64,000 bases of DNA from a virus. The position numbers and the translations under genes are program-made. Under the pieces are notes generated by a model, which was given only the letters and a program-made list of their open reading frames with translations, had not been told where the DNA came from and did no database searches. The stretch is from IMG/VR virus record IMGVR_UViG_3300027749_000046. The stretch is one strand, 5' to 3'. Of the stretch, positions 6,196 through 28,333 are shown piece after piece; position 1 is the stretch's first letter, and each line of letters begins with the position of its first letter.

Positions 6196-6196
6196 G

Positions 6197-6434: not shown

Positions 6435-6443
6435 AAAGAGAAA

Positions 6444-6595
6444 AGACAACTTCGGTTGTCTCTTCATGGATACATCAGAGCCCGAAGTGTGTGCACAATA
6501 ATAAACACAGAGGTAGGTCCACCAAAGAATACAGCTATTTCGAATGTCGCTGGTGAGGTGTAGGCTAGACAGCTGGTGTATCCTTGAAGAGACAA
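6444..6595 (+). ncRNA. structured ncRNA candidate 1
   Basis: 23-position stem 6456-6478/6573-6595 with one U-U and one G-U; competing UUCG hairpin 6444-6461. Confidence 0.6.
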
Positions 6596-6694
6596 TTGTG
6601 ATGGCGGAAAAGCCGCTGACTATATTAAAAAATGGCTTGGATATAATGATAAATCCAAACCAGTTCCTTCTTCTTAAACTTTACAAATAATTAT

Positions 6695-10607: not shown

Positions 10608-10695
10608 GGAGCGTGGGCAGGATGGTAATGCAGCGGTTTGCTAAACCGTACTACCTTAACTGGTAGAATAGGTTCGATTCCTATACGCTCCGCCA
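10608..10695 (+). tRNA. tRNA-Ser(GCT)
   Basis: TT-GCT-AA loop, long variable arm, GCCA. Confidence 0.95.
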
Positions 10696-12299: not shown

Positions 12300-12782
12300 A
12301 GAGCCGAGCACTCCAAACATTATAGACACGAATAGAAGCTCCATGCTTACCGCGAGGATAGCAGTAGAGCTCAATACTATCGCGATCTGTAAGAACGCAG
12401 CTGCAAAGTTGAAGTACGGGCTCTTCTTCTTAGCCTCATCTCTTTCAGCTTCTAGTTTTCTTGCCTTATCGTATTGCTCTTGTCTTCCTTCTTCAAGTCT
12501 CTTTATATAACCGCTGTATGTATCTCTTAGTGTCTTATCGGTCGTGGTAGTTAGCTCAAGTTCAAAGATAGTCTGCTTGATAGACTTAGCTTGATAGTAC
12601 GCCCACGTATCAGAAGCCAGTATGTTGTTTGACAATACCTTACCGCTGATGCTTCCGCCAATGAGAGTGCAGATGGCGAGGAGCGCGGCGTATATCGATA
12701 TGGTTATCGCACCTCGGCTCTTCATGACTGCCTCGCCTTCTGAGCGAGACAGTACCTTACCTGTCTTGTCTTTTAGCACCAT
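12249..12782 (-). CDS. DUF4337-like membrane protein
   Basis: SDTWAYYQAKSIKQ and LQIAIVLSS motifs; three TM segments. Confidence 0.75.
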   Translation of the reverse strand: MVLKDKTGKVLSRSEGEAVMKSRGAITISIYAALLAICTLIGGSISGKVLSNNILASDTWAYYQAKSIKQTIFELELTTTTDKTLRDTYSGYIKRLEEGRQEQYDKARKLEAERDEAKKKSPYFNFAAAFLQIAIVLSSTAILAVSMELLFVSIMFGVLGSLFLTNGIWYFFTIPWL

Positions 12783-13389: not shown

Positions 13390-13884
13390 TTACCTACATA
13401 ATGCTGTCATTAGAGGGATGATACTTCTCATACCGTGACATGCCATAAAATCTACTGCCCCCCATACCAGTAGACCAATCCATATTAGTATTGGTAGGAC
13501 TACGAAGATAGAGAACACAGCCCAGAACAACTCCCAGAATTCTTCTTTTCTCCTCTGAGCTTCTACCTTGAGTCTGTGGATCTCTTTGGCAGCCTCAGCT
13601 CTAGCCCTGTAGAACTCTTGTCTCTGAGCTGGAGACATCCTAGAGATCATCTCCTGCTCTTGCTCGGCCGCGATCTCTCGCATGGCCTGCTCGCGCAGAG
13701 TATTGTTATTGCGAATAATCTGGTTATTTATCTCGGTGATTCTATTCTGAGCTAATACTTTTCTATTATTAGCTTCTTTCTGGGCGGGTGCATTCCTAAC
13801 TACATCGACGATACCAAACACCGCGTCAGTTATTCCCTTACCATACGCGCCGCCGATCTTAGCGGCTGACTTTGGATCTATCAT
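13390..13884 (-). CDS. coiled-coil protein with C-terminal TM
   Basis: GGGG RBS before ATG 13884; late promoter TATAAATA 13960-13967. Confidence 0.7.
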   Translation of the reverse strand: MIDPKSAAKIGGAYGKGITDAVFGIVDVVRNAPAQKEANNRKVLAQNRITEINNQIIRNNNTLREQAMREIAAEQEQEMISRMSPAQRQEFYRARAEAAKEIHRLKVEAQRRKEEFWELFWAVFSIFVVLPILIWIGLLVWGAVDFMACHGMRSIIPLMTALCR

Positions 13885-13966
13885 TTTTATCCCCTGAGAT
13901 TTTATGAAATAATTACAAAAATCACGAGAGACATACAAGAGCCATGGTTCTATTAGTATTATTTAT

Positions 13967-13993
13967 AAAAAAATAGGCCCCGAAGGGCCTATT
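13967..13993 (-). terminator. intrinsic terminator
   Basis: AATAGGCCC-TTCG-GGGCCTATT plus U tract. Confidence 0.9.
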
Positions 13994-14001
13994 CTATTCT
14001 C

Positions 14002-14424
14002 TTAGTTGTTCATGTTCTTTAGCACCAGTCTACAGTAGGCTGATCTTCTTGTACTGCGAATTGATCCAGCGCTATATACTGTAGAAGCATTGCAGACGTC
14101 TCCATCTGCTATCTTTAGAGCCTCACTGAGGTAGAGCATCGTGTACTCAAGATTAGTCTCAGGATCTGATAGCTCTCTGCACTTTCCATTAAAGCCCTCA
14201 CCCTTTGCCGTTGTGCATAGGATTTGTCCGAGTCCGTATTCACCTCTTTTACCAATAACTCTTGGATTATAGTTGGACTCGATCTTTATCACCGCGTGCG
14301 CGAATTTCTCAGGCACGCCATGACTAACCGCTTTTCTCGTGACCATATCTTGAACCGACTCTTGTGCCGATACCGCTATGGTCATCGATAGCAATGCAGC
14401 GGTTGCTATTGCCATTACTCTCAT
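14002..14424 (-). CDS. secreted lytic transglycosylase (SLT domain)
   Basis: signal peptide; AVIKIESNYNP (catalytic ES), GLGQI, YSAG. Confidence 0.85.
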   Translation of the reverse strand: MRVMAIATAALLSMTIAVSAQESVQDMVTRKAVSHGVPEKFAHAVIKIESNYNPRVIGKRGEYGLGQILCTTAKGEGFNGKCRELSDPETNLEYTMLYLSEALKIADGDVCNASTVYSAGSIRSTRRSAYCRLVLKNMNN

Positions 14425-14518
14425 TTCTACTCCTTAGGGTTGGGATATTGATTCTTTCAATATCTTACTTCGCGCCAAAGGATACAGCGCGAATGACTAT
14501 TTATGATGATGGGAAATA

Positions 14519-14902
14519 TTATAGAGGCTCTTCGGCCGCTTCTATAATTGGCTCTTCGTCCTCGAGGACGCGTAGGTTGTCGATCATGAAGTATTGTATA
14601 TCACTATCGACTTTATCTTCGGGCTTTAGTATCTCCCGAATCTTGGTCAGCTGCGTAATGGCAGTCTTGATGGTATTCTGTACTACCTTGTCGTTGTGTC
14701 CCATCTCTAGGTCGGTCAGAGCCGACTCTAGATTCCAATCGAGCGAGTAGTCTATGTGATACTTATTTCCGGCCTCGTCTGTTTTTTTAGTTGGAGGAGG
14801 AAACAGTATATTCTTTACGGACTCTAACTTCTGGTATTCTGATGATCTATTCTTCTTAGACTTAAAAGCCATAATCTTAAACATAATATAATTCCTAATC
14901 AC
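14519..14902 (-). CDS. hypothetical protein
   Basis: ORF coupled to regA stop. Confidence 0.65.
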   Translation of the reverse strand: MIRNYIMFKIMAFKSKKNRSSEYQKLESVKNILFPPPTKKTDEAGNKYHIDYSLDWNLESALTDLEMGHNDKVVQNTIKTAITQLTKIREILKPEDKVDSDIQYFMIDNLRVLEDEEPIIEAAEEPL

Positions 14903-15300
14903 TATACTTTTTTGCGTCCTATGTTGTACTTAGCCACGAGCTCCCACTCGCCCTTCTCTTTATGAGGAAGGATCTTTATCTGATTCATGGGTGCCTTCGG
15001 CTCTCTGATGTTCTCTGGTTCTACTATCTTAACGAGCTCCCACTCTTCCAGAAGAGTCACGATAGCATTGCGGCGGCCCATGTCTTCCTCAGAGAAGTTT
15101 GATGGCTTGCCGTCTAGAGCAAACAGCTCCTTGAAGTGAACGATGTAGTACCTGCCCTGCTTGTGCAGAATATGACAAGACTGATACAGCTTCTTCTCTT
15201 TACGAGATGCAACGCCGATCCTGGTGAGAGTCTCTTTGATCTTGAGAAAGTCTTCTTCTTGGCCTATCTTCACTTCCACTAGTGTATCTACCACATTCAT
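14902..15300 (-). CDS. regA: translational repressor RegA
   Basis: DFLKIKETLTRIGVAS, LYQSCHILHKQG, YYIVHFKEL. Confidence 0.97.
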   Translation of the reverse strand: MNVVDTLVEVKIGQEEDFLKIKETLTRIGVASRKEKKLYQSCHILHKQGRYYIVHFKELFALDGKPSNFSEEDMGRRNAIVTLLEEWELVKIVEPENIREPKAPMNQIKILPHKEKGEWELVAKYNIGRKKV

Positions 15301-15674
15301 TTAATGCCACCTTTTTCTTGTTTTTGTTTTATAGCATCTATCTGCTCAGCCGACAGTATGGTCATTGCCAACTCTGTCTTCTTATGATTATATCCGTAGT
15401 ACTCCTGTACTGCAGAGAAGTCGGCGTCTTTAATGGGTTTATTCCACTTAGAAAATCGCTTTCCCTTTCTTATGGTATTTATTAGATAGGAGAATTGAAG
15501 TTTATTATCCAGATGATGATTTAGATTCATCTCTTGAGCGTACATAATTGTGTCTGGAAAATAAGACAGACCTCGGTTGACCATGAAGCCGTTGTATGAC
15601 TTCTCACTTGCATCGTCCGTGATCAGGTTCTCCTTGGTGAGAGTGATTGCCTTGATTACGTCAAATGGGTTCAT
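15297..15674 (-). CDS. 62: clamp loader small subunit gp62
   Basis: YNGFMVNRGLS, KRFSKW, YYGY; synteny 45-44-62-regA. Confidence 0.92.
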   Translation of the reverse strand: MNPFDVIKAITLTKENLITDDASEKSYNGFMVNRGLSYFPDTIMYAQEMNLNHHLDNKLQFSYLINTIRKGKRFSKWNKPIKDADFSAVQEYYGYNHKKTELAMTILSAEQIDAIKQKQEKGGIK

Positions 15675-16609
15675 GAGAAGTCAAGCTCCATCATGATCTC
15701 AGTCAAGCATGCCATTAGGTTGATCTCATGGTCTGCAGAGAAAGCAGCTTGATACTGGTACTTCGATAGAATGAGAATGAGCATAGGCACCGACTGGGCG
15801 CCGAGGTAGTCGGATGCGGTATCATACAGCTTGCGGAAGATAGAGTTCTGGTCTGCGTCTGAGTTCTCGCCGACCCACTTTCTTACGTCGGTGAACTGCT
15901 TGTTCTTCATCATATCAATTAGTGACTTCATGGATATCTCAGCCATGTTAGTCAGTATACCCGTATCAATCTGACCGGTCGCTGAGTATCTCTGCAGCTC
16001 GTTTAGGACTCGGCGCCAGTCTGGGAAGTGCTTCTTAATGACTTCGGCAACCACGGCTGGGTCGTTAGGTACACCCTCATTATGTAGTATGTTGGTGACT
16101 CGCTTGAAGAATTGCGCTGCAAGCTTAGAAGTATCTCGTCCGGATATTTTGAAGTCGATGACCGAGCACCTCGAGTGGAGCGGCTCGATGATCCTGTTCT
16201 TGTAGTTACAAGTAAGTATGAAGCCGCAGTTCCTACTAAACTCCTCGATGAAATTTCGTAGAGCCGGCTGCGTCGAGTTGGCATTGAGGTAGTCAGCTTC
16301 GTCCAAGATGACGTACTTACGTCCTCCAGCCAGAGATACTGAGGAAGCGAAGTTAAGGATATCGTTTCTAAGCGTATCGATGTTTCCATTCATAGACCCA
16401 TTGATCACGATGTAGTCGCATCCCAACTCCTCGAGCATGGCACGTGCTACGGTTGTCTTACCCACACCGGCGGATCCGGATAGGATCAAGTTAGGTATAT
16501 TCTGCTGGTCTATAAACTGCTGAAAGACAGCCTTTAGCTCAGCAGGTAAGATAGTATCAGCGATAGTCTTTGGACGATACTTCTCGACCCATAAAAAGTC
16601 TTGATTCAT
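15671..16609 (-). CDS. 44: clamp loader large subunit gp44
   Basis: WVEKYRP, GSAGVGKTT, DEAD, SRC. Confidence 0.97.
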   Translation of the reverse strand: MNQDFLWVEKYRPKTIADTILPAELKAVFQQFIDQQNIPNLILSGSAGVGKTTVARAMLEELGCDYIVINGSMNGNIDTLRNDILNFASSVSLAGGRKYVILDEADYLNANSTQPALRNFIEEFSRNCGFILTCNYKNRIIEPLHSRCSVIDFKISGRDTSKLAAQFFKRVTNILHNEGVPNDPAVVAEVIKKHFPDWRRVLNELQRYSATGQIDTGILTNMAEISMKSLIDMMKNKQFTDVRKWVGENSDADQNSIFRKLYDTASDYLGAQSVPMLILILSKYQYQAAFSADHEINLMACLTEIMMELDFS

Positions 16610-16629
16610 AATAACCCCATAATATAATA

Positions 16630-16683
16630 AAGTGCAAGTCAGTTGCGTATTTATATACTATACCGACTTGCACTTATTGTCAA
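16630..16683 (-). promoter_or_regulatory. early and late promoters nested in a 14-bp hairpin
   Basis: TTGACA-N17-TAGTAT, TATAAATA in loop; arms 16630-16643 and 16662-16675. Confidence 0.75.
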
Positions 16684-16689
16684 TCAAAA

Positions 16690-17352
16690 TTAGAAGCTAG
16701 AAGATGCTTCAACCGCCACGAAGTAGTCAGCCACATCACCTCTGAAGTGTGAGATACCCTTAGAAGAGATATCCACGTCGTAGTCTCCAGCGATTAGCTT
16801 GATGTTCTCAGACTTAAAGATCATCTTGAAGGTCTTGTCTGTCGAGCCAACCGCGATGGAGTAGACATCAGACGATGTGTTCTTTGAGTCCATCGCCTGT
16901 AGGTTGATGTCCTGTCCGTCGCCCACGACTGCGATCTCAGGCAGTCGTAGAACTCCAAGGCCCTTCATGACGTCATTGAGTGCGTCATTAGTAAGCTTAA
17001 AAGATACGTCGGTGGTAGGCAGCTTGATCTCTTTATCGGGAGGCGAGATGACCGTAGAGGTATCAGCAAACCGATACTGCATCTTCTTTCCAGAGCTTAA
17101 GATCGTGACGTGCTTCTCGTTGATCTCAAGAGTCGGATCATTGAACAGGGATAGAGTGCTCAAGAATCGCGATAGATCATAGATAGCAAACTGACTCTCG
17201 AACTGCTGTCCGATTGTAGCCTTTGCCATGATCGTCTTGTTAGGCGAGATTGTAGTTAAGACGCTACCTGGCTTTACCAAGATAGACGGGTTGATAGTAG
17301 AGAAGTTCTTCAACACCGCGATGGTCTTTTGTTCTAGCTTAATGGTCTGCAT
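16690..17352 (-). CDS. 45: sliding clamp gp45
   Basis: LKNFSTINPSI, FAIYDLSRFL, YFVAVE. Confidence 0.95.
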   Translation of the reverse strand: MQTIKLEQKTIAVLKNFSTINPSILVKPGSVLTTISPNKTIMAKATIGQQFESQFAIYDLSRFLSTLSLFNDPTLEINEKHVTILSSGKKMQYRFADTSTVISPPDKEIKLPTTDVSFKLTNDALNDVMKGLGVLRLPEIAVVGDGQDINLQAMDSKNTSSDVYSIAVGSTDKTFKMIFKSENIKLIAGDYDVDISSKGISHFRGDVADYFVAVEASSSF

Positions 17353-17369: not shown

Positions 17370-18224
17370 TTACTTCTTATTCTTACCGCCGAGTGCGCCT
17401 GGATCTGCCGTAGCAGCAGCACCGATAGACGCTAGGTCGGCAAGTGAGCCGCCAAAGATATAGGTACCTACGTGCTGCATCTTCATCCAAGGGCAGAACC
17501 AAGTCTTGAGGTTTAGCTCTTGAATCTTCTGACAGAACCAGTAGTCCTCAGAGAGATAGCGATTAGATACTGGATCGATCTCAGCTTGGAAGTACTGCAT
17601 GATCTGACGAGTACCATCGAAGTGCTCTGTGCGAACGTGATCTGGCTTGTAGAGATACTGCTTGAAGCTGTCAGCGAACTTCTGCATCGTAGCTTTCTTA
17701 ATCATCATGAAGCCCGTGCCAATCTCAAGTACCTCGACTGGCTCCGCGATGGAGATGCTTCCCGCACCGCCCTTTGGATTGAACACGTAGTCACCCACGA
17801 AGTTCTCAAGAACGTTTGGATCTTTATCGGCGATACCCTTGTCGACCGCGAGTTTGATCTTCTCCCAGCTGATGCACTTCTTAGGATATGGACCGCCGAT
17901 GACGTCGTACTCATTGCCTTCCTTGATAGACAAGGCGAGGAGGGCGATAACATCCTGTGGGTTGAATCCAATATCTGAGTCGATAAACATCAGGTGAGTT
18001 GCGTCAGAGCGCATGAACTCGTCACAGCAGTAGTTACGTGCGCGAGTAATAAGCGACTCGTTAAACAAGAAGTAGAACTGCAGCGGGATGCCATAGTGAG
18101 TGCAGAGTGCTGACAAGTCAGCGATAGAGCGAGTAAACATGCCCGCGCACATGCCGCCATACATCGGTGTGGCGATCATGATCTTGTGCTTGCGAAGCTC
18201 CTCAATCGGTACGTTAATTTCCAT
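17370..18224 (-). CDS. GT-A fold glycosyltransferase-like protein
   Basis: IATPMYGG, ESLITRARN, FIDSD (DxD), GTGFMMI, SEDYWFC, HVG. Confidence 0.8.
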   Translation of the reverse strand: MEINVPIEELRKHKIMIATPMYGGMCAGMFTRSIADLSALCTHYGIPLQFYFLFNESLITRARNYCCDEFMRSDATHLMFIDSDIGFNPQDVIALLALSIKEGNEYDVIGGPYPKKCISWEKIKLAVDKGIADKDPNVLENFVGDYVFNPKGGAGSISIAEPVEVLEIGTGFMMIKKATMQKFADSFKQYLYKPDHVRTEHFDGTRQIMQYFQAEIDPVSNRYLSEDYWFCQKIQELNLKTWFCPWMKMQHVGTYIFGGSLADLASIGAAATADPGALGGKNKK

Positions 18225-18649
18225 TATTTAGACTCCTTGTTGTGTTCTTGATCATGAACATATAGTTGCATCATTGCGTAGTGAATGACCTTCATCATGT
18301 CTTTTCTCCAGTCTTCTGGAGAACCCTTCCTGCCGTATCGCTGGGCGTACTTTAGTACATTCCCTACGCAGAAACCTGTGCCGTGTCCTGAGTCCATGAT
18401 AAACTCAGTGGCTTGAAACTTATTCTTTGAGTAGTGCTCTCCGTATGTATTATTAATATACACCGTAAGCTCATTTAAGTAAACCCCTTCGTTGTACTTA
18501 TATGGAATTTCTTTCTTGACGTCTACTTTGGTTATATTAAAACTCATGTTGATGTCTGTCTCGACGTATCCATCCTTTGGCCCTGTCGAGTACATAGGTT
18601 TCTTATCAGAACCACGCGCCCCAACTGTATATTTGCCTATTACATCCAT
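18224..18649 (-). CDS. DUF3310/SaV-like (T7 gp1.7-like nucleotide kinase family) protein
   Basis: HYS, GFCVGNVLKYAQRYGRK, DMMKVIHY. Confidence 0.75.
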   Translation of the reverse strand: MDVIGKYTVGARGSDKKPMYSTGPKDGYVETDINMSFNITKVDVKKEIPYKYNEGVYLNELTVYINNTYGEHYSKNKFQATEFIMDSGHGTGFCVGNVLKYAQRYGRKGSPEDWRKDMMKVIHYAMMQLYVHDQEHNKESK

Positions 18650-19833
18650 GCTGTAATGTCTCCTCCACTCTTAGCTTTAACTTCATACTCTTGCGATAGA
18701 TTACTCTGATAGACATAGTCTGTATCTAGCTCTTCTAAGCTACCCTCAAGCCACTTCTTGATCTCACTCGCCATATCTCTCGCGGTGACTACCGGAACGT
18801 TCTGACAGATGTGGTTGTAGTTCTTGTGGGCGTCGAGAAGCTCGAAGTTATCAGGCAGACCCATGATGGTCATCGCCTCCCTGTAGTTTATATAGCGGTC
18901 TTCATGGGGATGCGTCAGGCAGGTTGGGTAGTGACCGACGAACGCGCCGATGTAGTCCTTAGGCACTATGGTACCACGACGCATGATAGATCCACCGGCA
19001 TTTAGCTTGTCGTACTTGTACTGACACTTTGCCACCTCGCGCTCTAGCCCCTGAGCGGCCATCCACTCACCGACTTGCGCGTAGTTATACCCGAGCTTCT
19101 CGATATAACCAGACACGTCATTGCCGCGGGCGTTTGATGGCTCCATGATATCAAAGAACTCTCTGTGCGAGATACCGCCGTGGATGTTCTCTAGGATAAA
19201 ACGGTAGTACGGGTCTTGACTAGGTGTCTTCTTGTTGATTGGATCGCGCTGACTGTTACCGAGCGCGCCGAGGATTACGTCCTCGATCTTTGTGTACGGG
19301 CGATTGAAGTAGCCTAAGACTGGTGTCTTATCGCTCTTCCAGAAGAAGTAGAATGAGCGCTCGCGAACTTGAGAACCACCGTGGAGCTTCGTCCTCGTGC
19401 GATAGACAGTCATGGTATAGCCGTTGTCCTGACCGATCTTACGAAGCTGCTTGCGGACGTTCTCACCGATCTTGCCGGCAAATCCGGGAGCGTTCTCACC
19501 CCAGAGTACCTTAGGCTGTACTTCCTCGAGAACGTACTTTGTTGTCTCGATCATCCACTTGTTATTCTGATTGTGATCGCCATAACCCTGAGACAGCATC
19601 GACAGGCCAGCGCATGGGCATACAGAGCCTACCACGTCTACCTTGACGTCAGGCTTCTGGTTCTTATCTAGTACGTAGTAGGGAACGTCTTGATAGTGAT
19701 TGACGATATGCTGGTCGTTGGACCAGAACGCCTCGTACGACATGAGGTACTCAGGTCGAGTACCAAACGCTAGTTCTTGACCAATGGTCTCGCCGCCGAT
19801 CAGGGGGACGATAGTCGCATGCTTAAAAGTCAC
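18640..19833 (-). CDS. divergent C5-cytosine methyltransferase-fold protein
   Basis: CPCAGLS (IV), ENAP (VI), QVRER (VIII), REAMTIMGLPD (IX), QNVP (X); motif I degenerate (PLIGG). Confidence 0.8.
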   Translation of the reverse strand: MTFKHATIVPLIGGETIGQELAFGTRPEYLMSYEAFWSNDQHIVNHYQDVPYYVLDKNQKPDVKVDVVGSVCPCAGLSMLSQGYGDHNQNNKWMIETTKYVLEEVQPKVLWGENAPGFAGKIGENVRKQLRKIGQDNGYTMTVYRTRTKLHGGSQVRERSFYFFWKSDKTPVLGYFNRPYTKIEDVILGALGNSQRDPINKKTPSQDPYYRFILENIHGGISHREFFDIMEPSNARGNDVSGYIEKLGYNYAQVGEWMAAQGLEREVAKCQYKYDKLNAGGSIMRRGTIVPKDYIGAFVGHYPTCLTHPHEDRYINYREAMTIMGLPDNFELLDAHKNYNHICQNVPVVTARDMASEIKKWLEGSLEELDTDYVYQSNLSQEYEVKAKSGGDITAWM

Positions 19834-20930
19834 TTATTAGCCTCCAGTACGCGAGTAAGCTCTGCTCTCTCGGCCGCTTTATCTAGTGGGTGGTTATCAT
19901 ATAGACATTCGTACTGGTATTTAGCTAGCTTCTCTAGCTGGCTTTGGTCCATACCCTCGATGTCAGCTACGCTCAGACCGGTGAAGGCGTCACCGTAGAT
20001 CTTACCCTCAGTATCCTCACAGTACAGGATAGAACCTGCGTCTACGACCTGCTGGACGCGAGAGCGCCACCATCCAGACCCAGCGTGGTAGTAGGCAGGC
20101 ATCAGACAACCCCAGTGATTATTGTAAACTCGGCACATGTCCGGCTCTGTCACGCGCATGCTCTTGTGCTCACCGCGACGAGCGCCGTAGCTCATGACTT
20201 CCCAGTTGGCGGTCTTGCTGCTGAGCCACTTCTTTGTCTTATTTTGAATCAGCGATGAGAATACCCAGCCGCGAATCTTTTTATCTGGGCCGACGTCGTT
20301 GTCATCAAAGAAAGAGCCTAGGCCTTCTTCGCCGTAGTTATTCGTCGGCCCGCGATTTAAGTTATATGGGTTGGGATTGAATGAGAATAATCTATCTGAA
20401 GGAAACCCATTCTTTAGTTTTGTAAGATCACCGCCTGCAAAGGCGCATACCATGAGTCGGTTCTTGCGAGACAAGACGATGTCGATGGCATCGATGTAGT
20501 CTTGCTTATGTGCCTTTACGGTCTCTTGGCTTGAGTTTCCAGAATACAGCTCGAACATATAGTCGCGAAAAGGCTTGTACTTCTCTTCGTCGAGTAAGTT
20601 CCTCTTGTACTGAGGATAGCTCGCCATCACCTGGTCGATCTGCCAGTCATCATGAGCAAAGATAGCATCAGGCCTAGCCTTGATTGCATACAGCCCATCG
20701 TATAGATTCTGACAGAAAGACTGAATGCTGTGAAGGTAGATGATCACCTCGTCGTAGTGACTGATGTCCTCGCCGATTGTCACCGCGCGCTGCTCTACAG
20801 TCCAACCCATGTCCTCTAGGCATCTCACGAGCGAGTAGTGAGAGTTGAGGATCTTTAGTTCTTTCTTGAGGAAGTAGTCGCGTACGCACTGCTCGCGATT
20901 CATACCGGTGATGAGTATCTTCTTAGCCAT
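19830..20930 (-). CDS. putative GT-B DNA glycosyltransferase
   Basis: KILITG Rossmann start, DDWQ, C-terminal GCLMPAY..GSGWWRSR; context near gp42-like gene. Confidence 0.55.
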   Translation of the reverse strand: MAKKILITGMNREQCVRDYFLKKELKILNSHYSLVRCLEDMGWTVEQRAVTIGEDISHYDEVIIYLHSIQSFCQNLYDGLYAIKARPDAIFAHDDWQIDQVMASYPQYKRNLLDEEKYKPFRDYMFELYSGNSSQETVKAHKQDYIDAIDIVLSRKNRLMVCAFAGGDLTKLKNGFPSDRLFSFNPNPYNLNRGPTNNYGEEGLGSFFDDNDVGPDKKIRGWVFSSLIQNKTKKWLSSKTANWEVMSYGARRGEHKSMRVTEPDMCRVYNNHWGCLMPAYYHAGSGWWRSRVQQVVDAGSILYCEDTEGKIYGDAFTGLSVADIEGMDQSQLEKLAKYQYECLYDNHPLDKAAERAELTRVLEANK

Positions 20931-21303
20931 GGATATATTCCTTACACTTCACGAGCTGCTCTAGCTCATAGCTCTTATCATTTAGCTTTCTATTTAGTCC
21001 CGATGGATGGGGAAGCACGTGGTGCTCTACATTAATTTTTCGTAGTGCTTGAGATGGAAAGTTACCGAGTGCAATCACCTTGGCGTGTCCCTCTGTGCAT
21101 GACTTCAGCATATCCAGATCGATGTCCTTAAACTTATAAGAACCAGGCTCACTGATGCAGTTGGTGAATGAGAACAGGTCTAACTCTAGATAGTCAGCCC
21201 AAGCAGGCAGACGCCGCCATGTGGTATTCTGCTTGAGCTTTGCTGCAGACGGGTTGATACCAACGATGAGTACCCTACCAAGCTTCTGGTTCGCTGACGG
21301 CAT
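20923..21303 (-). CDS. minimal uracil-DNA-glycosylase superfamily protein
   Basis: VLIVGINPS, FTN, VIALG, LPHPSGLNR. Confidence 0.75.
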   Translation of the reverse strand: MPSANQKLGRVLIVGINPSAAKLKQNTTWRRLPAWADYLELDLFSFTNCISEPGSYKFKDIDLDMLKSCTEGHAKVIALGNFPSQALRKINVEHHVLPHPSGLNRKLNDKSYELEQLVKCKEYIHG

Positions 21304-21766
21304 CTAGTAGTTCTCCAGTTTTATAGTCGTATCTAGCTGCGAATACACCAGCTTCTTTGAACATCATAGACGTGAACTTATATGCATCATGCCATATGGG
21401 AGCGATATCAGCAGGATGGCAGATAAACACACGCTTGATACCTACCTGTATGACTCCCTTGGCGCACTCAGAGCAAACAGGAAGACCATGTACGTACAGG
21501 TCCGCGCCGTTGAGACTAGTACCATTGAGCGTAGCATTATATATGCAGTTCTGTTCTGCGTGCACTACGAACTTGTACTTGGTCTCTCTGTCATGCAGGC
21601 GTTCTTGACTATCTTCTACCCCACGCGGGAAGCCGTTGTAGCCCTGCGAGAGGATCTGTCCGTGTTTGCCTACGGCCACAGCTCCAACTTGCGTGCTTGG
21701 ATCTTTAGACCAAGACGATATATGCTGAGCTAACCTGAGGTAGTTCTGCGTCCACTTATACGACAA
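21275..21766 (-). CDS. cd: dCMP deaminase
   Basis: SKDPSTQVG, GYNG, HAEQN, PVCSEC; TTG start about 21766-21772 after GAGG. Confidence 0.92.
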   Translation of the reverse strand: MSYKWTQNYLRLAQHISSWSKDPSTQVGAVAVGKHGQILSQGYNGFPRGVEDSQERLHDRETKYKFVVHAEQNCIYNATLNGTSLNGADLYVHGLPVCSECAKGVIQVGIKRVFICHPADIAPIWHDAYKFTSMMFKEAGVFAARYDYKTGELLDAVSEPEAW

Positions 21767-22412
21767 GATCAAAATGCCTCTCGTATACGTGAAGGCTGCC
21801 GACCTGCCACGTGATCTCACCTGCGATGACACCGAGATCTGCCGCCAGCTTCTGCTGCACGTGTTTCTGCCAGGCATAGTCGTTCTTATATCCATAGACG
21901 ACATCATTGGATCGCATCTGAACTACAGTCTGGAGCTTACCATCTCGAATCATGTACTGAACTGCGTTGGTGCACATGAAGTCAGACCGACCGTTGTAGT
22001 CATAGTCATACCACATGCTGGGCCGAGTATAGATCATGATTGCGCGACGAGACAGTGGGTTCCTAATTAGCTCTTCAAAGCAATTCTTATACTGGTTCTC
22101 ATTCTCAGAAGTGTAGATACACCAGCCGTAGTTTGAGTTGATAAATCCATCATGGTCTGCAACCTGCTGCCAGATCGCTGGTGCACCACCTGGAATATCA
22201 TACACGTTTAGAGACTTAGAGTTATACCAATCGATCTCGCGCTTGATGTAGTCATCATTTGGAGTGCCAAAGATAGCTGGTTCATTAGCTCGAAACTGTG
22301 CGCCGACCATCTCGAGCATCTTAACGCCGGTCTTATCGGTAACAAAGTCCTCACGCTCGAGCATGCTCTTGAAAGCGCCGCGGATAGTATTGATTGTGAA
22401 CATATAGTCCAT
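21756..22412 (-). CDS. 42: dCMP hydroxymethylase-like thymidylate synthase homolog (T4 gp42-like)
   Basis: INSNYGW, DFMCTN, MRSNDVVYGYKNDYAWQ (Asp specificity residue, not the TS PFN), GSLHVY. Confidence 0.9.
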   Translation of the reverse strand: MDYMFTINTIRGAFKSMLEREDFVTDKTGVKMLEMVGAQFRANEPAIFGTPNDDYIKREIDWYNSKSLNVYDIPGGAPAIWQQVADHDGFINSNYGWCIYTSENENQYKNCFEELIRNPLSRRAIMIYTRPSMWYDYDYNGRSDFMCTNAVQYMIRDGKLQTVVQMRSNDVVYGYKNDYAWQKHVQQKLAADLGVIAGEITWQVGSLHVYERHFDLVV

Positions 22413-22849
22413 TAGAGATCTCCTGGTCTAGCGATTGGATTGATACCAAAGCCCGGCGCGCCTGACATAGTAAATGCATTATCTTGCGGACGAAGTTTTG
22501 GTACTTTTTCAAGCATGATCTTGCGATTAAGAAAGTCGCGATCTGCATCTTGGCCTTCGACCTTACCACGAGCATACGCCACGAAGAACGAAGCGTAGTT
22601 GATTAGGTCCTTTGCTGAGTCTTCTAGCGACTCAAAGTTCTGCGTGTAGCCAGGATCGTTCTGCATGGCTTCCATGACAGACCGCATGCGAAGCATCTTG
22701 GCGTGCATGATCTCGTGGATAGTCAGACAGCCGGATGGATAGTAGTCTGACTGCTTGATCTTTGAGTTGGGATTCTGATAGTCACGTGACTTCTTGAGCT
22801 GAAGATCAATGCACTCTTGAAGAACTTTTACTGACTCACGTTGTTCCAT
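22412..22849 (-). CDS. nucleotide-modification-associated helical domain (Nmad1/DUF1599-like)
   Basis: KKSRDY, K.LR, ESLEDS..DLINYA. Confidence 0.65.
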   Translation of the reverse strand: MEQRESVKVLQECIDLQLKKSRDYQNPNSKIKQSDYYPSGCLTIHEIMHAKMLRMRSVMEAMQNDPGYTQNFESLEDSAKDLINYASFFVAYARGKVEGQDADRDFLNRKIMLEKVPKLRPQDNAFTMSGAPGFGINPIARPGDL

Positions 22850-22850
22850 A

Positions 22851-23417
22851 TTATACTCCTAGGTCGATGCAATCGCCATAGCTGATTGCTGATGCGTGAT
22901 TAAACTTGTAGGGACTCATTCCAGTTGTATTCTTTATAATATACCGCGAAAGCTTTTTACTGTCAATAAGAAACTTCGGTCTGTACTTATACGTAAGAGG
23001 CTTTAGTTCTTCATAGGCCATAACCAGAAAGAAGTCATTGAGCTTGGTTGAGCGAATAACAGACTCGCACTGACCGTCGCTGATGTACCACACCGAATAC
23101 TTACCGTTCATGGTCTTGACCTCACCGGACTTATCCTCGCAGATAACATCTTTCTTACGCTGAGCATACGTCAATCCAGCCGCGTCCTCTGTTATAGGAT
23201 GCGCCTGCTGAAAGTCCTCAATCTGTTGGATTGCAATCTCGGCGCCGAGACCTACCGCGGTATTTCGAACCACTGTATCTCTCGAGCGTGCGCCGCGTCG
23301 ACGGCACTCTGTCTTCCAGTTTGTCTCTACCATCATATCTAGATCACCCCTGTGATCCAAGAGATTAATGGTGGTGGATAGACTACGAAGTTTTTCTACA
23401 ATAGAATTGCTGAGCAT
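22851..23417 (-). CDS. putative PD-(D/E)xK endonuclease
   Basis: GLGAE helix, KDV strand, GEVKT; own promoter and masking hairpin. Confidence 0.55.
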   Translation of the reverse strand: MLSNSIVEKLRSLSTTINLLDHRGDLDMMVETNWKTECRRRGARSRDTVVRNTAVGLGAEIAIQQIEDFQQAHPITEDAAGLTYAQRKKDVICEDKSGEVKTMNGKYSVWYISDGQCESVIRSTKLNDFFLVMAYEELKPLTYKYRPKFLIDSKKLSRYIIKNTTGMSPYKFNHASAISYGDCIDLGV

Positions 23418-23472
23418 GTTTCACCTTATTCATAATATAACTCATTATAACATGCTCAGCAATATTTGTCAA
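23406..23472 (-). promoter_or_regulatory. consensus promoter with start-codon-masking hairpin
   Basis: TTGACA(23472-23467)-N17-TATAAT; perfect 15-bp inverted repeat 23406-23420/23449-23463. Confidence 0.85.
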
Positions 23473-23870
23473 TAGGTAATCATGGTGAACAACCCGTGAT
23501 TACCCTCGTGTGATGGAGCTTTCCATCCCTCAGGCTTGATTAGATCTGGTAGGCCGAGAGGGTTAGGCCGCTCTGGCTTAACACCCGTCTTCTTATTCAT
23601 GTTAGCTTCTAAGACCTCGTCCCAAGCTCTATGAGAGTCGACGCCAAAACCGTCGAGAGTTCCAATTGCAACGACGCACAGGTCGATCAGAGCGTCGACC
23701 ACGTCCTCGGCTCCACTTGCTTTTCTGAGCTCATCGAGTTCTTCTTGCAAGAAGTTAATGCGAAACTCGAGAAACTTTGCAAGAGTCTCAGAGTCCATCT
23801 TATCAATAACAGGATGTACTCCATAGTGCTTATGCATCCTCCAAATATCTTTTACCCAGTCTTTAGACAT
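23469..23870 (-). CDS. MazG/PRA-PH-like dNTP pyrophosphohydrolase
   Basis: QEELDEL, DALID, ANMNK, KPEGWKAP. Confidence 0.85.
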   Translation of the reverse strand: MSKDWVKDIWRMHKHYGVHPVIDKMDSETLAKFLEFRINFLQEELDELRKASGAEDVVDALIDLCVVAIGTLDGFGVDSHRAWDEVLEANMNKKTGVKPERPNPLGLPDLIKPEGWKAPSHEGNHGLFTMITY

Positions 23871-24399
23871 TAATCCACTCCGGTGCTTCTCGTTTTTTCC
23901 AATTATGCATCTTGGCTTTACCTATCTTATAATAGTTTCTGTAATTTGTCAATGGGTCGCTGCTGATCTTGTACTCGTCTGCCATAGCCGATGGCATTGG
24001 AGTCCAGTCGTAAGACTGTAGGTTCTTAGGAGGTGACTGAAGATAGTAGCCCATGTCATAGCACTTGTGCTTCTTGCCATAGCGATATGTATACTCCTCG
24101 CACAGCGCAAAGAAGTGCTCTACGAGCCAGTTGTAGTTCTCTATGGACTCACGACACCAAACTGCAGAGGGATGGTTCATGTGAGTGGCCGCGTACATGA
24201 TCGTGTCGCGAGCATCTGGAAGAGTCCACCTCTTTACCTTGCGGCCTAGCTTAGACAAGCCGACTTGCATCTCGCCGTCGAGTACGCGATGAGCAGTCGA
24301 GAGCAGTTGTGCTGACTCGAGGATCATCTTTACCACGTGTTTATCCACCATCCAGCGCGCTGCCTGCACCGGATCTTCATCAATATAAAAGATATTCAT
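23863..24399 (-). CDS. pyrimidine-dimer glycosylase/DenV-related conserved protein
   Basis: MNIFY, DKHVVKMILESAQLLSTAH, THMNHPSAVW, EYTYRYGK.H, YRNYY. Confidence 0.75.
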   Translation of the reverse strand: MNIFYIDEDPVQAARWMVDKHVVKMILESAQLLSTAHRVLDGEMQVGLSKLGRKVKRWTLPDARDTIMYAATHMNHPSAVWCRESIENYNWLVEHFFALCEEYTYRYGKKHKCYDMGYYLQSPPKNLQSYDWTPMPSAMADEYKISSDPLTNYRNYYKIGKAKMHNWKKREAPEWINV

Positions 24400-25079
24400 T
24401 ATTTACTCGCGTATATCATGCTTGCCCAGTTATTCTTAGGATCTTGCGCAGTGACCACCTTAAATTCCTTTGATAGGTAGTCGACAGTCCACTTGAACTT
24501 GTCTTTTGTCTTACCGTCGCGAAGAGCATTCTGGTGCCATTCCATTACCATGGCCTCGATCGGAGTCCAGTCGACTACGTCATTTTGGAAGATGTCCCAC
24601 TCACCGCCCTCGATGTCGAGCTTGAGCTTGTTGGCGCCAGACTCAGCTAGCGCTCTAGAGAATCTAGTTGCCTTCGCAGTAGTAAAATCTCGGCCTCTAC
24701 TCGTAACCGTCGAGTGCATGCCCTTGTTCTTGAGCTTGTTGATGAAGAACTTGATCTCGCTATCGTCAGAACCGATAAGAGCCAGATTATGGAGAGTAAC
24801 ATTCGAGCACCCGTTCCGTTCTAAGTTCTTACGGGCGATCTCGTAGTTGTCGGCATCGGGTTCGTATGATACCACTCGGCTCACGAGCTTTGAAACTCGC
24901 GTCGAGTAGGCAGCGATATTACAGCCGGCATCCATTACCACATCAGTTGGCTTATAGCTCATCACGTCATTGAAGTAAGTACTACGGTAGCACTCGTCTA
25001 CCACGTATTTATCTAGAGTTTCAGGTCGAGTATAGAATGTCTCATTCTCATTCTTACGCGTGTAGTCCTCAAGCAACAT
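24399..25079 (-). CDS. FkbM-family methyltransferase
   Basis: DAGCNI, SYEP, N...N, KLDIEGGE, MEWH. Confidence 0.85.
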   Translation of the reverse strand: MLLEDYTRKNENETFYTRPETLDKYVVDECYRSTYFNDVMSYKPTDVVMDAGCNIAAYSTRVSKLVSRVVSYEPDADNYEIARKNLERNGCSNVTLHNLALIGSDDSEIKFFINKLKNKGMHSTVTSRGRDFTTAKATRFSRALAESGANKLKLDIEGGEWDIFQNDVVDWTPIEAMVMEWHQNALRDGKTKDKFKWTVDYLSKEFKVVTAQDPKNNWASMIYASK

Positions 25080-25572
25080 TTTTAACTCCTTGGAATAGTG
25101 AATCGCGCTTCTTGAATGCTAGCTCGCGATGGTACTTGTTAGCTCGGTTATAGAACAAGATGCCGTCGAGATGGTCGATCTCATGCTGGAATACTCGAGC
25201 GGTCATGCCTGTAAACATCTCAGTTCGTGTGTCGCCATTTGGCATGGTGAATCGAACTCGAACGTGCTGAGACCGCTTTACCTTTACCACGAGACCCGGA
25301 TACGACATGCATCCCTCGTCGAGTAGTACTTTCTCGTCGCTGGCCATAACGATCTTTGGATTAAAGCACACGAAGTTCTCAGGCATGCTTCTCATGGCAA
25401 AGACGCGATATGGAACTCCAACCTGATTAGCCGACAAGCCAATTCCATTATTATCGCGCATGAACTTAACGAGATCTTTTGCGAACTCGATTGGATCAAA
25501 CGGAGGACTTGCAAAGTCAAACTCCATGCACTCGCGTGTTAAGATAGGGTTACTTCCAGTCACTAGATCCAT
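25069..25572 (-). CDS. def: peptide deformylase
   Basis: GIGLSANQVG, EGCMS, QHEIDHLDG. Confidence 0.95.
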   Translation of the reverse strand: MDLVTGSNPILTRECMEFDFASPPFDPIEFAKDLVKFMRDNNGIGLSANQVGVPYRVFAMRSMPENFVCFNPKIVMASDEKVLLDEGCMSYPGLVVKVKRSQHVRVRFTMPNGDTRTEMFTGMTARVFQHEIDHLDGILFYNRANKYHRELAFKKRDSLFQGVKNVA

Positions 25573-27281
25573 TATGCTACCATCCTTGAAAAGTTCTTGT
25601 GCTTCTCGAACCGAATAACGTTGTCGAACTTATCCGCGATTTGATCCGTCTTATGGCTTATTATATACACATTTGAGTCATTTGTCAACTGATTAATTAT
25701 CTTCATGAACTCCTCAGTTCCATTGGCGTCAAGTGAGCTGTCGAACACCTCGTCCATGATGAGGATGTTGGTGTTGATAGAGTTGCGAAGCTTGGCAACT
25801 GCCCTCCACGTGAAGAGAACTGCAAGGTTGATCCTCATCTTCTCACCCTCCGAGAAAGAAGCGTAGGAGAACTCATCGCGGTATCTTGACTTGATGGTCT
25901 CATTGAAGTTCTCGTCGAGGTTGAACTCAACGAAGAAGTCCATGGCCGCGAGGTACTTGTTGATGAGCTTGTTGATGATTGGGATGTACTGCTTGATCAT
26001 GCGCGACTTGATACCGCCGTCTTTCAAGAGCATTCCCGCTGCAGACAGAAGAAGCTGCTCCTCACCTAGGTCTACTATCTTGTTCTTAGTGTCTTCTAGC
26101 TCTCTAAGAAGATCATCGATCTTGGTGGTGTCCTGCTGCTCTTGGTCTTGCTTGATGTTGTCGATCTCATCTTTGAGCTGGTCTTTATAAGACTGAAGCG
26201 AGTCGATCTTGGTGATGACCCTGTGGCGATCCATCTTCTTGGTGTTGATGTCGTTGTGTATATTTAAGATCTCATCGAGCTTCTGACTCGCGGCCTCGTA
26301 CTCGGCGGTGAGCTGGTCGAGTCCTTGGTCTACCGCAGTGATATCGTCGGTCTTCTTCTGAATTGACTCAGCCCTGAATCCCTCGTCAATCTGCTGCTGA
26401 CATGTCGGGCAGTTCTCGTGGTTGTTTAGGAACTCGATGTCACCGCGATAGGTGGCGATCTTTGCCTCGAGCTGGTGCTTCAGTGTAGACAGCTTGTTCT
26501 TACGACGAGTTATAGTGTCCTCATCGGTAAGCTTAGAATTTAACTCCGAGATGTCTCTGTCGAGAGAGAACTTGGTCTCTATGTTTCTACTGATCTCATC
26601 TGTGGTAGACTTGATGCGATCTTTCTTCTCTGCGATGATCTTTGCGTTGTTCTTGTCGTTCTCAGCGATATGCTCGCGCACGAGCTTGATCTTCTCTTCT
26701 ACGAGATCTTTATCCTTGTCGGCCTTCCATATGTTGTTTGAGTTGTCCGACACTTTCTGCTTGAGCAGCGTGTTCATCGTAGTGAAGATCTGAAGGTCGA
26801 GTAGGTCCTCGATGATGTCCCTGCGCTGGCCGGCGGGAAGCTGCATGAACGGCACGAATGAAGCCGATCCTAAGACTACCACCTGACAGAACGACTTGTG
26901 GTTTATCTTTAAGATCTGCTTCTCTAGGATCTCCTGGTAGTCGCGTACATCCGACGACTGGTTCAAGAGAGCTCCGTTCATGTAAACCTCGAAGAAGTTC
27001 GGCCGAACTCCGCGAGAGATCTTGTACATGTTCTGACCGATGCTGAACTCGAGCTCGACCACCAGATCTTTCTTGGTGATTGAGTTGAGAAGCTGAGGTT
27101 TATTTATCTTTCGGAACGGCTTGTTGAATAAGCCGTATGATAGGGCATCAAGAATAGTAGACTTGCCTGCACCATTCTCACCTATGATGAGAGTGTTGTT
27201 GGACTTGTCCAGTGGTATCTCTGTGAATAGATTGCCCGTAGATAGAAAGTTCTTATAACGGATCTTGTGGAATACTATCAT
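25572..27281 (-). CDS. 46: recombination ATPase gp46 (Rad50/SbcC-like)
   Basis: GENGAGKS, CPTC hook, FSEGE, MDEVFD, SH. Confidence 0.97.
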   Translation of the reverse strand: MIVFHKIRYKNFLSTGNLFTEIPLDKSNNTLIIGENGAGKSTILDALSYGLFNKPFRKINKPQLLNSITKKDLVVELEFSIGQNMYKISRGVRPNFFEVYMNGALLNQSSDVRDYQEILEKQILKINHKSFCQVVVLGSASFVPFMQLPAGQRRDIIEDLLDLQIFTTMNTLLKQKVSDNSNNIWKADKDKDLVEEKIKLVREHIAENDKNNAKIIAEKKDRIKSTTDEISRNIETKFSLDRDISELNSKLTDEDTITRRKNKLSTLKHQLEAKIATYRGDIEFLNNHENCPTCQQQIDEGFRAESIQKKTDDITAVDQGLDQLTAEYEAASQKLDEILNIHNDINTKKMDRHRVITKIDSLQSYKDQLKDEIDNIKQDQEQQDTTKIDDLLRELEDTKNKIVDLGEEQLLLSAAGMLLKDGGIKSRMIKQYIPIINKLINKYLAAMDFFVEFNLDENFNETIKSRYRDEFSYASFSEGEKMRINLAVLFTWRAVAKLRNSINTNILIMDEVFDSSLDANGTEEFMKIINQLTNDSNVYIISHKTDQIADKFDNVIRFEKHKNFSRMVA

Positions 27282-28333
27282 TCTACGCTCAGTGCCTCGT
27301 TGTATAGATTGCTTATGACTCTCTCGAGCTTGTCTTTATCAAGGTGCTTGGTGTTGATCTGGTCGATATACTTCTTGAAGATGGTCATGGTATCCTCAGC
27401 TTCCTGAACGATATCGCCGTCGTCTTCCATGTTGAGGTTCAGGTGATCCTCGACGATCTGCACTTGACTTGGGTTTGCCTTCTCAAGGTTGTCGATGAAC
27501 ATGTCGAACCAGTACGGGTTGGTCTTGTTCTGCACGATGACCTTTACGATCTTATCCTTGTATTGAGCGTAGTCGTACTCTGCTATAAAGTCGATGCCGA
27601 CGTTCGAGTCGTTGTACCATATCTTCTTAAAGATCTTATATGGATTGCGAACAAAACCTAGCGCTCGAGTCTCTGTATCAAAGACGTGAAAACCTCTGTC
27701 GTCGTCGTAGTCGCTCCAAGTAAACTCAGAGTGGCTGCCAAGATAGTGGATATTCCCAGTGCTAGACTTATGATGATAATGACCACTGAGTACTGTATCA
27801 AACTTATCAAAGAGACCAACATCGTCTCCATGTGTACTAATGCTTCCCTTAAACATCTCAAAGCCCTGGAGCTCCAGGTGTCCCATTGCAATCTGCGCAT
27901 CTGTCTTTCTCAGTAGATCTAGTGTCTGCTCGCGATTATCCTGACATATCCAGGGGATAAAAAGCACCTTGGTATCATCGAAGGTGATCTCGGTTGCCGT
28001 CTCATATCTCTGGATACCATTGTAGAGCTCTGAGATCGCGTTCACGTCGTTCGTGTTCTTGTAGTACACGTCGTGGTTACCGAGTATCTGGTGGTAGTCG
28101 ATGTTCCGCTTAGCGAGAGGCTCCATGAAGTCCTCGCGAAGTCTCTTGGCGGTGTTGAAGTTTATGTACTTGCGGCGATCTACCAGATCACCCAGGTGAA
28201 CCACGGTAGTGATACCCTCGGCGTCCAGCAGTGGAAAGAACACGTCGTCGAGAAACTTCTTGGTGTAGTCGTAGAACAACGCGTTGTCATTGCGCACTCC
28301 CCAGTGCGTGTCAGTTATAATTGCTATCTTCAC
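27278..28333 (-). CDS. 47: recombination nuclease gp47 (Mre11/SbcD-like)
   Basis: DTHWG, GD..D, GNHD, GHLE, SGHYH. Confidence 0.97.
   Translation of the reverse strand: MKIAIITDTHWGVRNDNALFYDYTKKFLDDVFFPLLDAEGITTVVHLGDLVDRRKYINFNTAKRLREDFMEPLAKRNIDYHQILGNHDVYYKNTNDVNAISELYNGIQRYETATEITFDDTKVLFIPWICQDNREQTLDLLRKTDAQIAMGHLELQGFEMFKGSISTHGDDVGLFDKFDTVLSGHYHHKSSTGNIHYLGSHSEFTWSDYDDDRGFHVFDTETRALGFVRNPYKIFKKIWYNDSNVGIDFIAEYDYAQYKDKIVKVIVQNKTNPYWFDMFIDNLEKANPSQVQIVEDHLNLNMEDDGDIVQEAEDTMTIFKKYIDQINTKHLDKDKLERVISNLYNEALSVE

Follow-up and report, generated by a model that had tools for sequence, protein, structure and literature searches.

We found that positions 17370-25079 of a 64,000-nucleotide stretch of viral DNA (IMG/VR record IMGVR_UViG_3300027749_000046; hereafter the window) probably hold a cassette of genes with which an uncultured T4-like phage from freshwater modifies its DNA. 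With a probability that we put at roughly 75%, this locus is a T4-type cassette for the glycosylation of 5-hydroxymethylcytosine (hmC), in which mostly homologs of T4 genes are gathered into one module together with a variable transferase slot and four conserved extra genes. These extra genes encode a C5-cytosine-methyltransferase-like (C5-MTase-like) enzyme, a small protein with a uracil-DNA glycosylase (UDG) fold, an Nmad1-like protein and a DUF3310 protein.

The window belongs to the genome of a T4-like phage. The original prediction, read from the letters of the sequence, had placed a packed minus-strand gene cluster around a thymidylate synthase (TS) homolog at these positions, and this layout was confirmed. 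It had counted eleven genes; twelve consecutive minus-strand open reading frames (ORFs) are actually present, and the EndoV/Pyr_excise-like gene (23863-24399) was missing from the earlier list. Neighbouring ORFs of the cassette overlap by 1-29 nt or are separated by gaps of no more than 51 nt. Minus-strand regA, gp62, gp44 and the sliding clamp gene gp45 lie on the gp45 side of the cassette (14902-17352), and on the other side a peptide deformylase gene (25069-25572), gp46 and gp47 extend over 25069-28333, with the structural genes beyond. A megablast search of the 7.7 kb cassette against 50,697 phage records returned zero matches and identified no close cultured relative.

The predicted dCMP hydroxymethylase and the nucleotide-supply genes

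The TS homolog (21756-22412; Pfam Thymidylat_synt, 2e-17) is, as judged from its sequence, a true T4 gp42 ortholog of the hydroxymethylase type, and 5-hydroxymethyl-dCMP is its predicted product. In the alignment, it showed 61% identity to T4 gp42 and 25% identity to RB69 gp48, and a tblastn search gave 60% identity to Tequatrovirus gp42. The SDFMCTN segment, in which a dCMP-type Asp like that of T4 gp42 had originally been recognized, is present and aligns with the T4 enzyme; its catalytic Cys is invariant across the TS alignment. Both this motif and the motif MRSNDVV..GYKND are the same as in T4 gp42, whereas the RB69 equivalent of the latter begins MRSQNCA. In E. coli ThyA numbering, the protein has Cys146, L143D, a retained D169 and N177D, and the hydroxymethylase signature residues are common to all TS homologs of the related loci described below.

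The meaning of these residues follows from the work of Lee et al. (NAR 2026, PMC13326640), who reported that Asp in place of Asn177 confers a preference for dCMP over dUMP, that an acidic residue at Leu143 is a further criterion, and that position 169 separates the products, D169N being diagnostic of 5-hydroxy-dCMP synthases and D169 marking hydroxymethylases. In the same work, RB69 gp48 and DLP3 gp80 are TS homologs with N177D and L143E, yet their product is 5-hydroxy-dCMP and not 5-hydroxymethyl-dCMP. The enzyme studied here might resemble those of RB69 and DLP3 and make 5-hydroxy-dCMP, or that of Xp12 and make 5-methyl-dCMP, in which case the DNA would contain O-glycosylated 5-hydroxycytosine or 5-methylcytosine (5mC) instead of hmC. 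The combination of N177D with L143D/E, which is found in hydroxymethylases and 5-hydroxy-dCMP synthases alike (PMC13326640), would agree with such a product, as would the presence of Acinetobacter phages among the best cultured-phage matches of the protein. We consider this very improbable, since the D169N marker is absent (RSND as in T4, versus RSQN in RB69 gp48), the identity is 61% to the T4 enzyme versus 25% to that of RB69, and an acidic residue at position 143 suits hydroxymethylation rather than methylation (PMC13326640). The retention of D169 together with N177D and L143D thus argues for a hydroxymethylase.

The dCMP deaminase that had been noted beside the TS homolog was readily identified (21275-21772; Pfam dCMP_cyt_deam_1, 5e-19; phrog_174, 4e-44) and shares its Pfam family and its PHROG with the phage dCMP deaminases. 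Its ORF of 210 amino acids (aa) is over-extended and shows a seeming overlap of 150 nt with the TS homolog. The likely start, as read from the sequence, is an in-frame TTG at 21772 that stands behind a Shine-Dalgarno sequence, GAGAGG, at the TS stop, in agreement with the starts of the orthologs. A frameshift or fusion of the two genes was ruled out by this start and by the separate genes found in the orthologs.

The MazG-like pyrophosphatase of the original prediction also proved to be present. It is a 133-aa MazG-type all-alpha NTP pyrophosphatase (23469-23870; Pfam PRA-PH, 1.7e-7, above the cut-off), a predicted dCTPase/dUTPase, whose best PDB match is DR2231, a MazG-like pyrophosphatase (2.3e-5). 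No similarity to T4 gp56 was detectable by BLASTP (E 0.28).

The kinase step is less clear. The 141-aa protein encoded at 18224-18649 had been described as a DUF3310-like kinase, and the DUF3310 domain was found (Pfam, 5.8e-10). The kinase part of the description did not hold beyond an alignment with the T7 gp1.7 kinase at residues 151-183 alone (33 C-terminal aa, E 3e-6), and homology to the whole T7 kinase was not seen. As the only candidate within the cluster, the protein is weakly suggested to be a 5-hydroxymethyl-dCMP (hm-dCMP) kinase. Because neither the window nor a 91%-complete relative yielded a homolog of the T4 gp1 kinase, some non-orthologous kinase would be needed.

The predicted glycosyltransferase and its variable slot

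The ORF at 19830-20930 encodes a 366-aa BGT-like glycosyltransferase of the GT-B class, which we predict to be a DNA hmC glycosyltransferase. Its AlphaFold2 model (mean predicted local distance difference test score, pLDDT, 90.4) was compared with known structures by two independent aligners. T4 BGT was the top match by Foldseek (1qkj, 2e-8), and VIA likewise aligned the model with T4 BGT (1c3j) with a Z-score of 17.3 and a root mean square deviation of 3.6 over 289 aa. T4 AGT followed next (1y6f, Z-score of 16.4), and the VIA match covers residues 1-366. The comparison with T4 AGT and BGT that had been proposed for this putative GT-B thus placed BGT best and AGT second. The model shows the two Rossmann domains of a GT-B fold, and the protein has no Pfam match.

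To place the cassette among its relatives, more than 20 loci (designated by L-numbers) were collected by protein-guided IMG/VR scans and exact-protein look-ups. More than 15 independent metagenomic contigs have the same order of cassette genes, so the gene set is no chance grouping. In L003-L015, L025, L037 and L038, the order begins with gp46, deformylase, (EndoV-like), MazG, (nuclease slot), Nmad1 and gp42, and continues from gp42 with deaminase, UDG-fold, the transferase slot, C5-MTase-like, DUF3310, the 284-aa gene and gp45; the DUF3310 gene follows the C5-MTase-like gene in L003-L014, L025, L037 and L038. L025, which comes from an independent ENA sample, carries all twelve genes at 73-98% identity (FkbM, 96%; DenB-like, 85%). 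A survey of the gene neighbourhoods of gp42 homologs therefore showed these genes co-occurring as a unit in many related genomes, and this result supports the earlier view of a cytosine-modification locus built around a dCMP-specific TS homolog with a DNA glycosyltransferase. In L038, an Endonuclease_NS gene (11404-12051) and a periplasmic solute-binding-protein gene (13580-14578) were additionally observed between gp45 and gp44.

The slot between the UDG-fold and C5-MTase-like genes varies among the relatives. It is occupied by the BGT-like protein alone in the studied phage, L003, L009, L025 and L038. In L004 and L007 it contains a GalE-like epimerase, the BGT-like protein and UDP-galactopyranose mutase (Glf), and in L037 the BGT-like protein and the mutase without the epimerase. 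A clear T4 AGT homolog (Pfam AGT, 8.6e-78) fills the slot in L008, L015 and L016, and a TET-associated glycosyltransferase (TAGT) does so in L020. Four genes without a Pfam match, encoding about 383, 339, 300 and 360 aa, are found there in L011 (4691-8734) and L017 (4889-9998) and may constitute an undescribed tailoring pathway. Variation of this kind marks the slot as an exchangeable sugar-tailoring module, and it provides the best genomic argument for the prediction that the 366-aa protein glycosylates hmC DNA.

We also observed that BGT-like genes repeatedly stand beside UDP-galactopyranose mutase (L004:7009-10000, L007:1184-4148 and L037:7001-9078). The same arrangement is seen in Aeromonas phage Aes012 (L027:3892-6074), in which a 28% homolog of the BGT-like protein adjoins the mutase, and all of these phages have a gp42-type (D169) TS homolog. 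The gene content suggests galactofuranosyl-hmC DNA in these four phages; we know of no description of galactofuranosyl-hmC as a DNA base. Since members of the BGT-like family adjoin the mutase in these phages, the sugar donor may differ within the family. Nowhere in the 64,000-nt window did we detect a homolog of Glf, of the GalE-like epimerase, of AGT, of TAGT or of any of the four slot genes of L011, and a Pfam scan of the cassette and the ten other non-structural ORFs of the window detected no sugar-nucleotide or further transferase genes. A host NDP-hexose is therefore the likely donor in the studied phage.

The genes for the C5-MTase-like, UDG-fold, Nmad1 and DUF3310 proteins are kept whatever transferase stands in the slot, the AGT homolog of L008 and L015 included. 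They form part of the hmC cassette itself and, being kept whichever transferase fills the slot, are uninformative about the sugar. It had been proposed that the additional enzymes indicate a modified cytosine other than plain glucosyl-hmC, for example one with a methylated or extended sugar. As far as the sugar is concerned, this comparison does not support the proposal; a methylated or extended sugar is possible and unsupported.

With regard to occurrence, the whole stretch was found in five freshwater metagenome runs, possibly its source, and 36-49% of it in three more. Two lake metatranscriptome runs from different studies yielded 100%-identical short contigs from several cassette genes, covering parts of the stretch only, the uncovered parts carrying no information; this gives a weak hint that the cassette is expressed.

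The C5-MTase-like enzyme

The C5-MTase fold that had been assigned to the ORF at 18640-19833 was borne out by a match to Pfam DNA_methylase (PF00145, 3e-16). The gene encodes 397 aa and overlaps the glycosyltransferase gene by 4 nt. The Pfam match spans profile positions 54-324 only, and the first ~55 residues of the protein were aligned neither by the Pfam profile nor by E. coli Dcm; comparison of the family with Dcm by hhalign aligned motifs IV-VIII alone. Motifs IV (PC), VI (ENV), VIII (QxRxR), IX and X are all present. Among 14 sequences, C74 (PC), E113/N114 (ENxP), Q155/R157/R159 (QxRxR) and QNVP are invariant, and RE is kept too. In contrast to the canonical FxGxGG, motif I is the variant (V/I)PLIGG, and the usual acidic position of motif II is not conserved. 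The mean identity is 0.60 in the N-terminal region, 0.63 in the catalytic core and 0.51 in the target-recognition region. Because the N-terminal region is as conserved as the core and the target-recognition region moderately so, the protein seems to be a variant that is being maintained and whose family members have a single target in common, rather than a decaying gene or a family of varied specificities, at least as far as its sequences reveal.

The family comprises at least 2732 protein clusters at 90% identity in metagenomes, and in every genome examined the gene is accompanied by a dCMP-type TS homolog. This includes the distant members in Pseudoalteromonas phage XG4, cyanophage S-TIM5 and the L022 genome. 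In S-TIM5 (L001), the 'ThyA' of 285 aa (5775-6611; record positions 140905-141741) is a full-length TS with Asp at ThyA-177 and Cys at 143 (…CPPCH…ARSNDMATGVPLD…), and it lies 2.4 kb from the distant homolog of the C5-MTase-like gene; judging from these residues, S-TIM5 may modify cytosine. No publication describing a C5-MTase-like gene within a gp42-type cassette came up in our literature searches.

The role of this enzyme is a puzzle, since almost no unsubstituted C5 would be expected in the phage DNA if dCTP is removed, hm-dCMP is made and a DenB-like dC-specific nuclease is present, as predicted here. The explanation to which we give slightly less than an even chance is that the protein is an ordinary orphan 5-methylcytosine methyltransferase, dependent on S-adenosylmethionine (SAM), that acts on residual phage cytosine, on host DNA or on early replication products, so that the final base would be plain hexosyl-hmC. 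The significant Pfam match, the PDB matches to cytosine methyltransferases and the presence of every catalytic motif agree with such an enzyme, and the moderately conserved target-recognition region is as expected for one shared short motif. Phage orphan C5-methyltransferases with GpC specificity are also known (PMC8256090). The strict association with a dCMP-type TS homolog, however, is unexplained if unmodified cytosine is needed, and a full hmC pathway with a DenB-like nuclease would leave little substrate. Furthermore, no methylation in E. coli was obtained with phage C5-methyltransferase-like proteins whose motifs are divergent (PMC8256090), a result that keeps action on hmC under consideration.

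In that second explanation, the protein would not methylate. Its Cys would attack C6 of hmC or glycosyl-hmC in DNA, activating the 5-hydroxymethyl group so that the 5-substituent is exchanged, extended or otherwise altered, and the final base would be an undescribed cytosine derivative. We regard such a new kind of DNA-modifying enzyme as rather unlikely. It would fit the invariance of all covalent-catalysis motifs alongside a conserved variant of motif I (PLIGG) and an N-terminus at which the first 53 Pfam profile positions are unaligned, a region that is maintained and not decayed, given that it is as conserved as the core. It would also fit the constant companionship of a dCMP-type TS homolog, S-TIM5 and XG4 included, the position of the gene, which always adjoins transferase or sugar genes, and the DenB-like dC-specific nuclease, which implies little free cytosine in the phage DNA. 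In vitro and without SAM, C5-methyltransferases add or remove aldehydes and couple thiols at hmC, which we count in its favour. Against it, ordinary SAM binding would be consistent with the conserved Asp at the expected position of motif III and with the GG in motif I, the source databases name these proteins site-specific cytosine methylases, and no obvious co-substrate pathway gene is conserved alongside. The enzyme may act jointly with the adjacent glycosyltransferase, Nmad1 or DUF3310 protein. A third option is some role other than orphan methylation or action on hmC. If the enzyme did act on hmC, a very abundant freshwater T4-like clade would carry an undescribed cytosine derivative.

Accessory genes, proposed pathway and known systems

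Four further small proteins are encoded in the cassette. The minimal UDG-superfamily protein that had been proposed at 20923-21303 (126 aa) was supported by its AlphaFold2 model (pLDDT 86.7), whose nine best VIA matches are all members of the UDG superfamily, with Z-scores of 10.2-7.4 (1l9g, 10.2; UdgX, 9.6; MUG, 8.3; TDG, 7.9). Foldseek placed TDG (8.6e-4) and MUG (2e-3) in the lead. Within the family, HPSxxNR is invariant, and motif A is GxNPS, two relatives having Ser or Cys in place of the Asn. At 90% identity the family divides into more than 1100 protein clusters, and a precomputed match to UDG (PF03167) exists for many of them; its profile matched E. coli MUG in motif B alone, with a probability of 4.6%.

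The Nmad1/DUF1599-like helical protein (22412-22849; 145 aa) matches phrog_18404, in whose members this domain follows a fused MazG-like domain. We scanned the studied copy and seven orthologs that are 50-72% identical. PF07659 (DUF1599, Nucleotide modification associated domain 1) was matched by five of these eight family members, with a best value of 1e-7, and the assignment is made at this family level; the studied copy itself gave no match at E<=1. An atlas lead also pointed to this domain.

The nuclease candidate at 22851-23417 is, by its sequence, a probable homolog of endonuclease IV (T4 DenB), with 188 aa versus 185 aa in the T4 protein and a BLASTP match to it of 3e-4. By hhalign, the two align over 81 columns with 31% identity, including the D...EVK motif, and the score of 26.5 compares with 12.3+/-2.1 (maximum 18) for 100 shuffles. 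One relative has a Phage_T4_End_IV (PF26887) match in the same nuclease slot. The pyrimidine-dimer glycosylase-like protein of the T4 EndoV/DenV family (23863-24399; 178 aa; Pfam Pyr_excise, 5.8e-6, 27 bits versus a cut-off of 23; phrog_624, 2e-58) probably has a repair role. Its gene is present in L004, L005, L006, L011, L013 and L025 and absent in L003. PDB sequence and profile searches gave nothing significant for the EndoV-like protein or for the UDG-like, Nmad1-like and 284-aa families.

At the gp45 end, the 284-aa protein (17370-18224; phrog_1574, 2e-57) had been named as a second, GT-A glycosyltransferase and as a sign of a modified cytosine other than plain glucosyl-hmC. For the GT-A identity, weak leads to Anp1 and to nucleotide-diphospho-sugar transferases were all that we found. 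A 65% identical homolog stands beside gp45 in Stenotrophomonas phage DLP6, likewise flanked by deformylase, gp46 and gp47, and no TS homolog was found in the whole DLP6 genome; phages of Sinorhizobium, Caulobacter, Pelagibacter and Synechococcus carry the gene as well. As it lies beside gp45 in the TS-free DLP6 and recurs in rhizobial, cyano- and pelagiphages, we take this gene to be a backbone gene of the phage lineage that is probably outside the hmC pathway, which removes it as an indicator of the sugar. In DLP6, the gp46-gp45 interval contains the deformylase and the 284-aa gene but lacks the cassette, which suggests that the hmC module was inserted into an interval conserved in the phage backbone.

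At the other end, the FkbM family of the 226-aa accessory methyltransferase (24399-25079) was confirmed (Pfam Methyltransf_21, 2.3e-8, 34.8 bits versus a cut-off of 22.7). The role in the cassette that had been proposed for it was not, as among the loci examined only the nearest relative, L025, shares the gene (96% identity). Elsewhere in the window, the tRNA region ends with three plus-strand ORFs that overlap one another (10638-12299). Two ORFs are unusual cargo for a T4-like phage: one of 214 aa (7778-8422) with a biotin-protein-ligase N-terminal (class I glutamine-amidotransferase-like) domain, and one of 177 aa (12249-12782) with a DUF4337 domain.

We propose the following pathway, in which each activity is predicted. 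The MazG-type pyrophosphatase would convert dCTP (and dUTP) to the monophosphate, and the gp42 ortholog would convert dCMP to 5-hydroxymethyl-dCMP, while the deaminase would turn part of the dCMP into dUMP for thymidylate synthesis. Some kinase, with DUF3310 as the sole candidate in the cluster, would raise hm-dCMP to the diphosphate, and the phage polymerase would incorporate hmC instead of C, possibly to the point of full replacement. After replication, the BGT-like GT-B would move a sugar from an NDP-sugar, likely a host NDP-hexose, onto the hydroxymethyl group. The DenB-like nuclease would break down cytosine-containing (host) DNA, and the UDG-fold and EndoV-like proteins would most likely repair uracil or damaged bases.

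Several points weigh against this interpretation. Both hmC and its sugar in the phage DNA are predictions from the genes, and so is the dCTP specificity of the pyrophosphatase. The glycosyltransferase has no significant sequence similarity to BGT (BLASTP E 0.11), and a modelled GT-B fold is by itself no proof of a DNA acceptor. The contigs from the RNA libraries possibly derive from contaminating DNA. Finally, if all cytosines are 5-substituted, the conserved C5-MTase-like gene has no obvious substrate, and this is left unexplained.

The original prediction had further assumed that each T4 role is filled here by a non-orthologous stand-in. This was contradicted by the 61% gp42 ortholog, the deaminase of the same Pfam family and PHROG, the probable DenB homolog, the GT-B with a BGT fold and the AGT homolog in the slot of some relatives; only the pyrophosphatase (versus gp56) and the missing gp1 kinase look non-orthologous. 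The T4 strategy of hmC plus sugar is the textbook case of phage DNA hypermodification, and the same core is found here in an abundant uncultured freshwater lineage, to which the cassette adds four conserved proteins not present in T4 and a plug-in slot for different glycosyltransferases and sugar genes. A C5-MTase-fold enzyme that always accompanies a C5-blocking pathway is a biochemical puzzle whose answer could give a new base or a new enzyme activity of use in the chemistry and sequencing of 5hmC. The DenB-like and UDG-fold genes are also relevant to the way in which such phages discriminate self from host DNA.

Compared with the T-even hmC/glucosyl-hmC system, the cassette shares the gp42 ortholog, the dCMP deaminase, the DenB-like nuclease and the BGT-fold GT-B, and some relatives have a true AGT homolog. 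On the T4 gene map, 42/b-gt and a-gt flank genes 43-47, and the cassette lies in the same replication-gene neighbourhood. In contrast to T4, the pyrophosphatase is of the MazG/PRA-PH type without detectable gp56 similarity, no gp1 kinase was found, all modification genes are in one gp45-gp46 cassette with a variable transferase slot, and the C5-MTase-like, minimal UDG-fold, Nmad1 and DUF3310 genes, which are absent from T4, are included.

The glycosylated 5-hydroxycytosine pathways of RB69, DLP3 and RL38J1 (PMC13326640) likewise use a dCMP-acting enzyme of the TS superfamily and GT-B DNA glycosyltransferases, and RL38J1 has UDP-galactopyranose mutase in or near its cluster, as do the relatives L004, L007 and L037. 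Unlike in those phages, the TS homolog studied here keeps D169 and the cassette is without sugar-nucleotide genes; a C5-MTase-like gene is unreported in them.

In the phage C5-methyltransferase/TET/glycosyltransferase clusters (Burke et al. 2021, PMC8256090; Pyle et al. 2023 preprint), a C5-MTase-family gene also adjoins DNA glycosyltransferases, and the TAGT of L020 recalls this arrangement. No TET/JBP dioxygenase was detected, however, and hmC would arise here before replication through the gp42 ortholog, so that the methyltransferase has no evident role as a supplier of 5mC. Lastly, TS, PRA-PH and dCMP deaminase genes co-occur on modified-cytosine contigs in the MetaGPA study (Yang et al. 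2021, PMC8670742). The cassette shows the same association of the three genes, whereas its tailoring enzyme is a GT-B transferase and that of the MetaGPA module is an hmC carbamoyltransferase.

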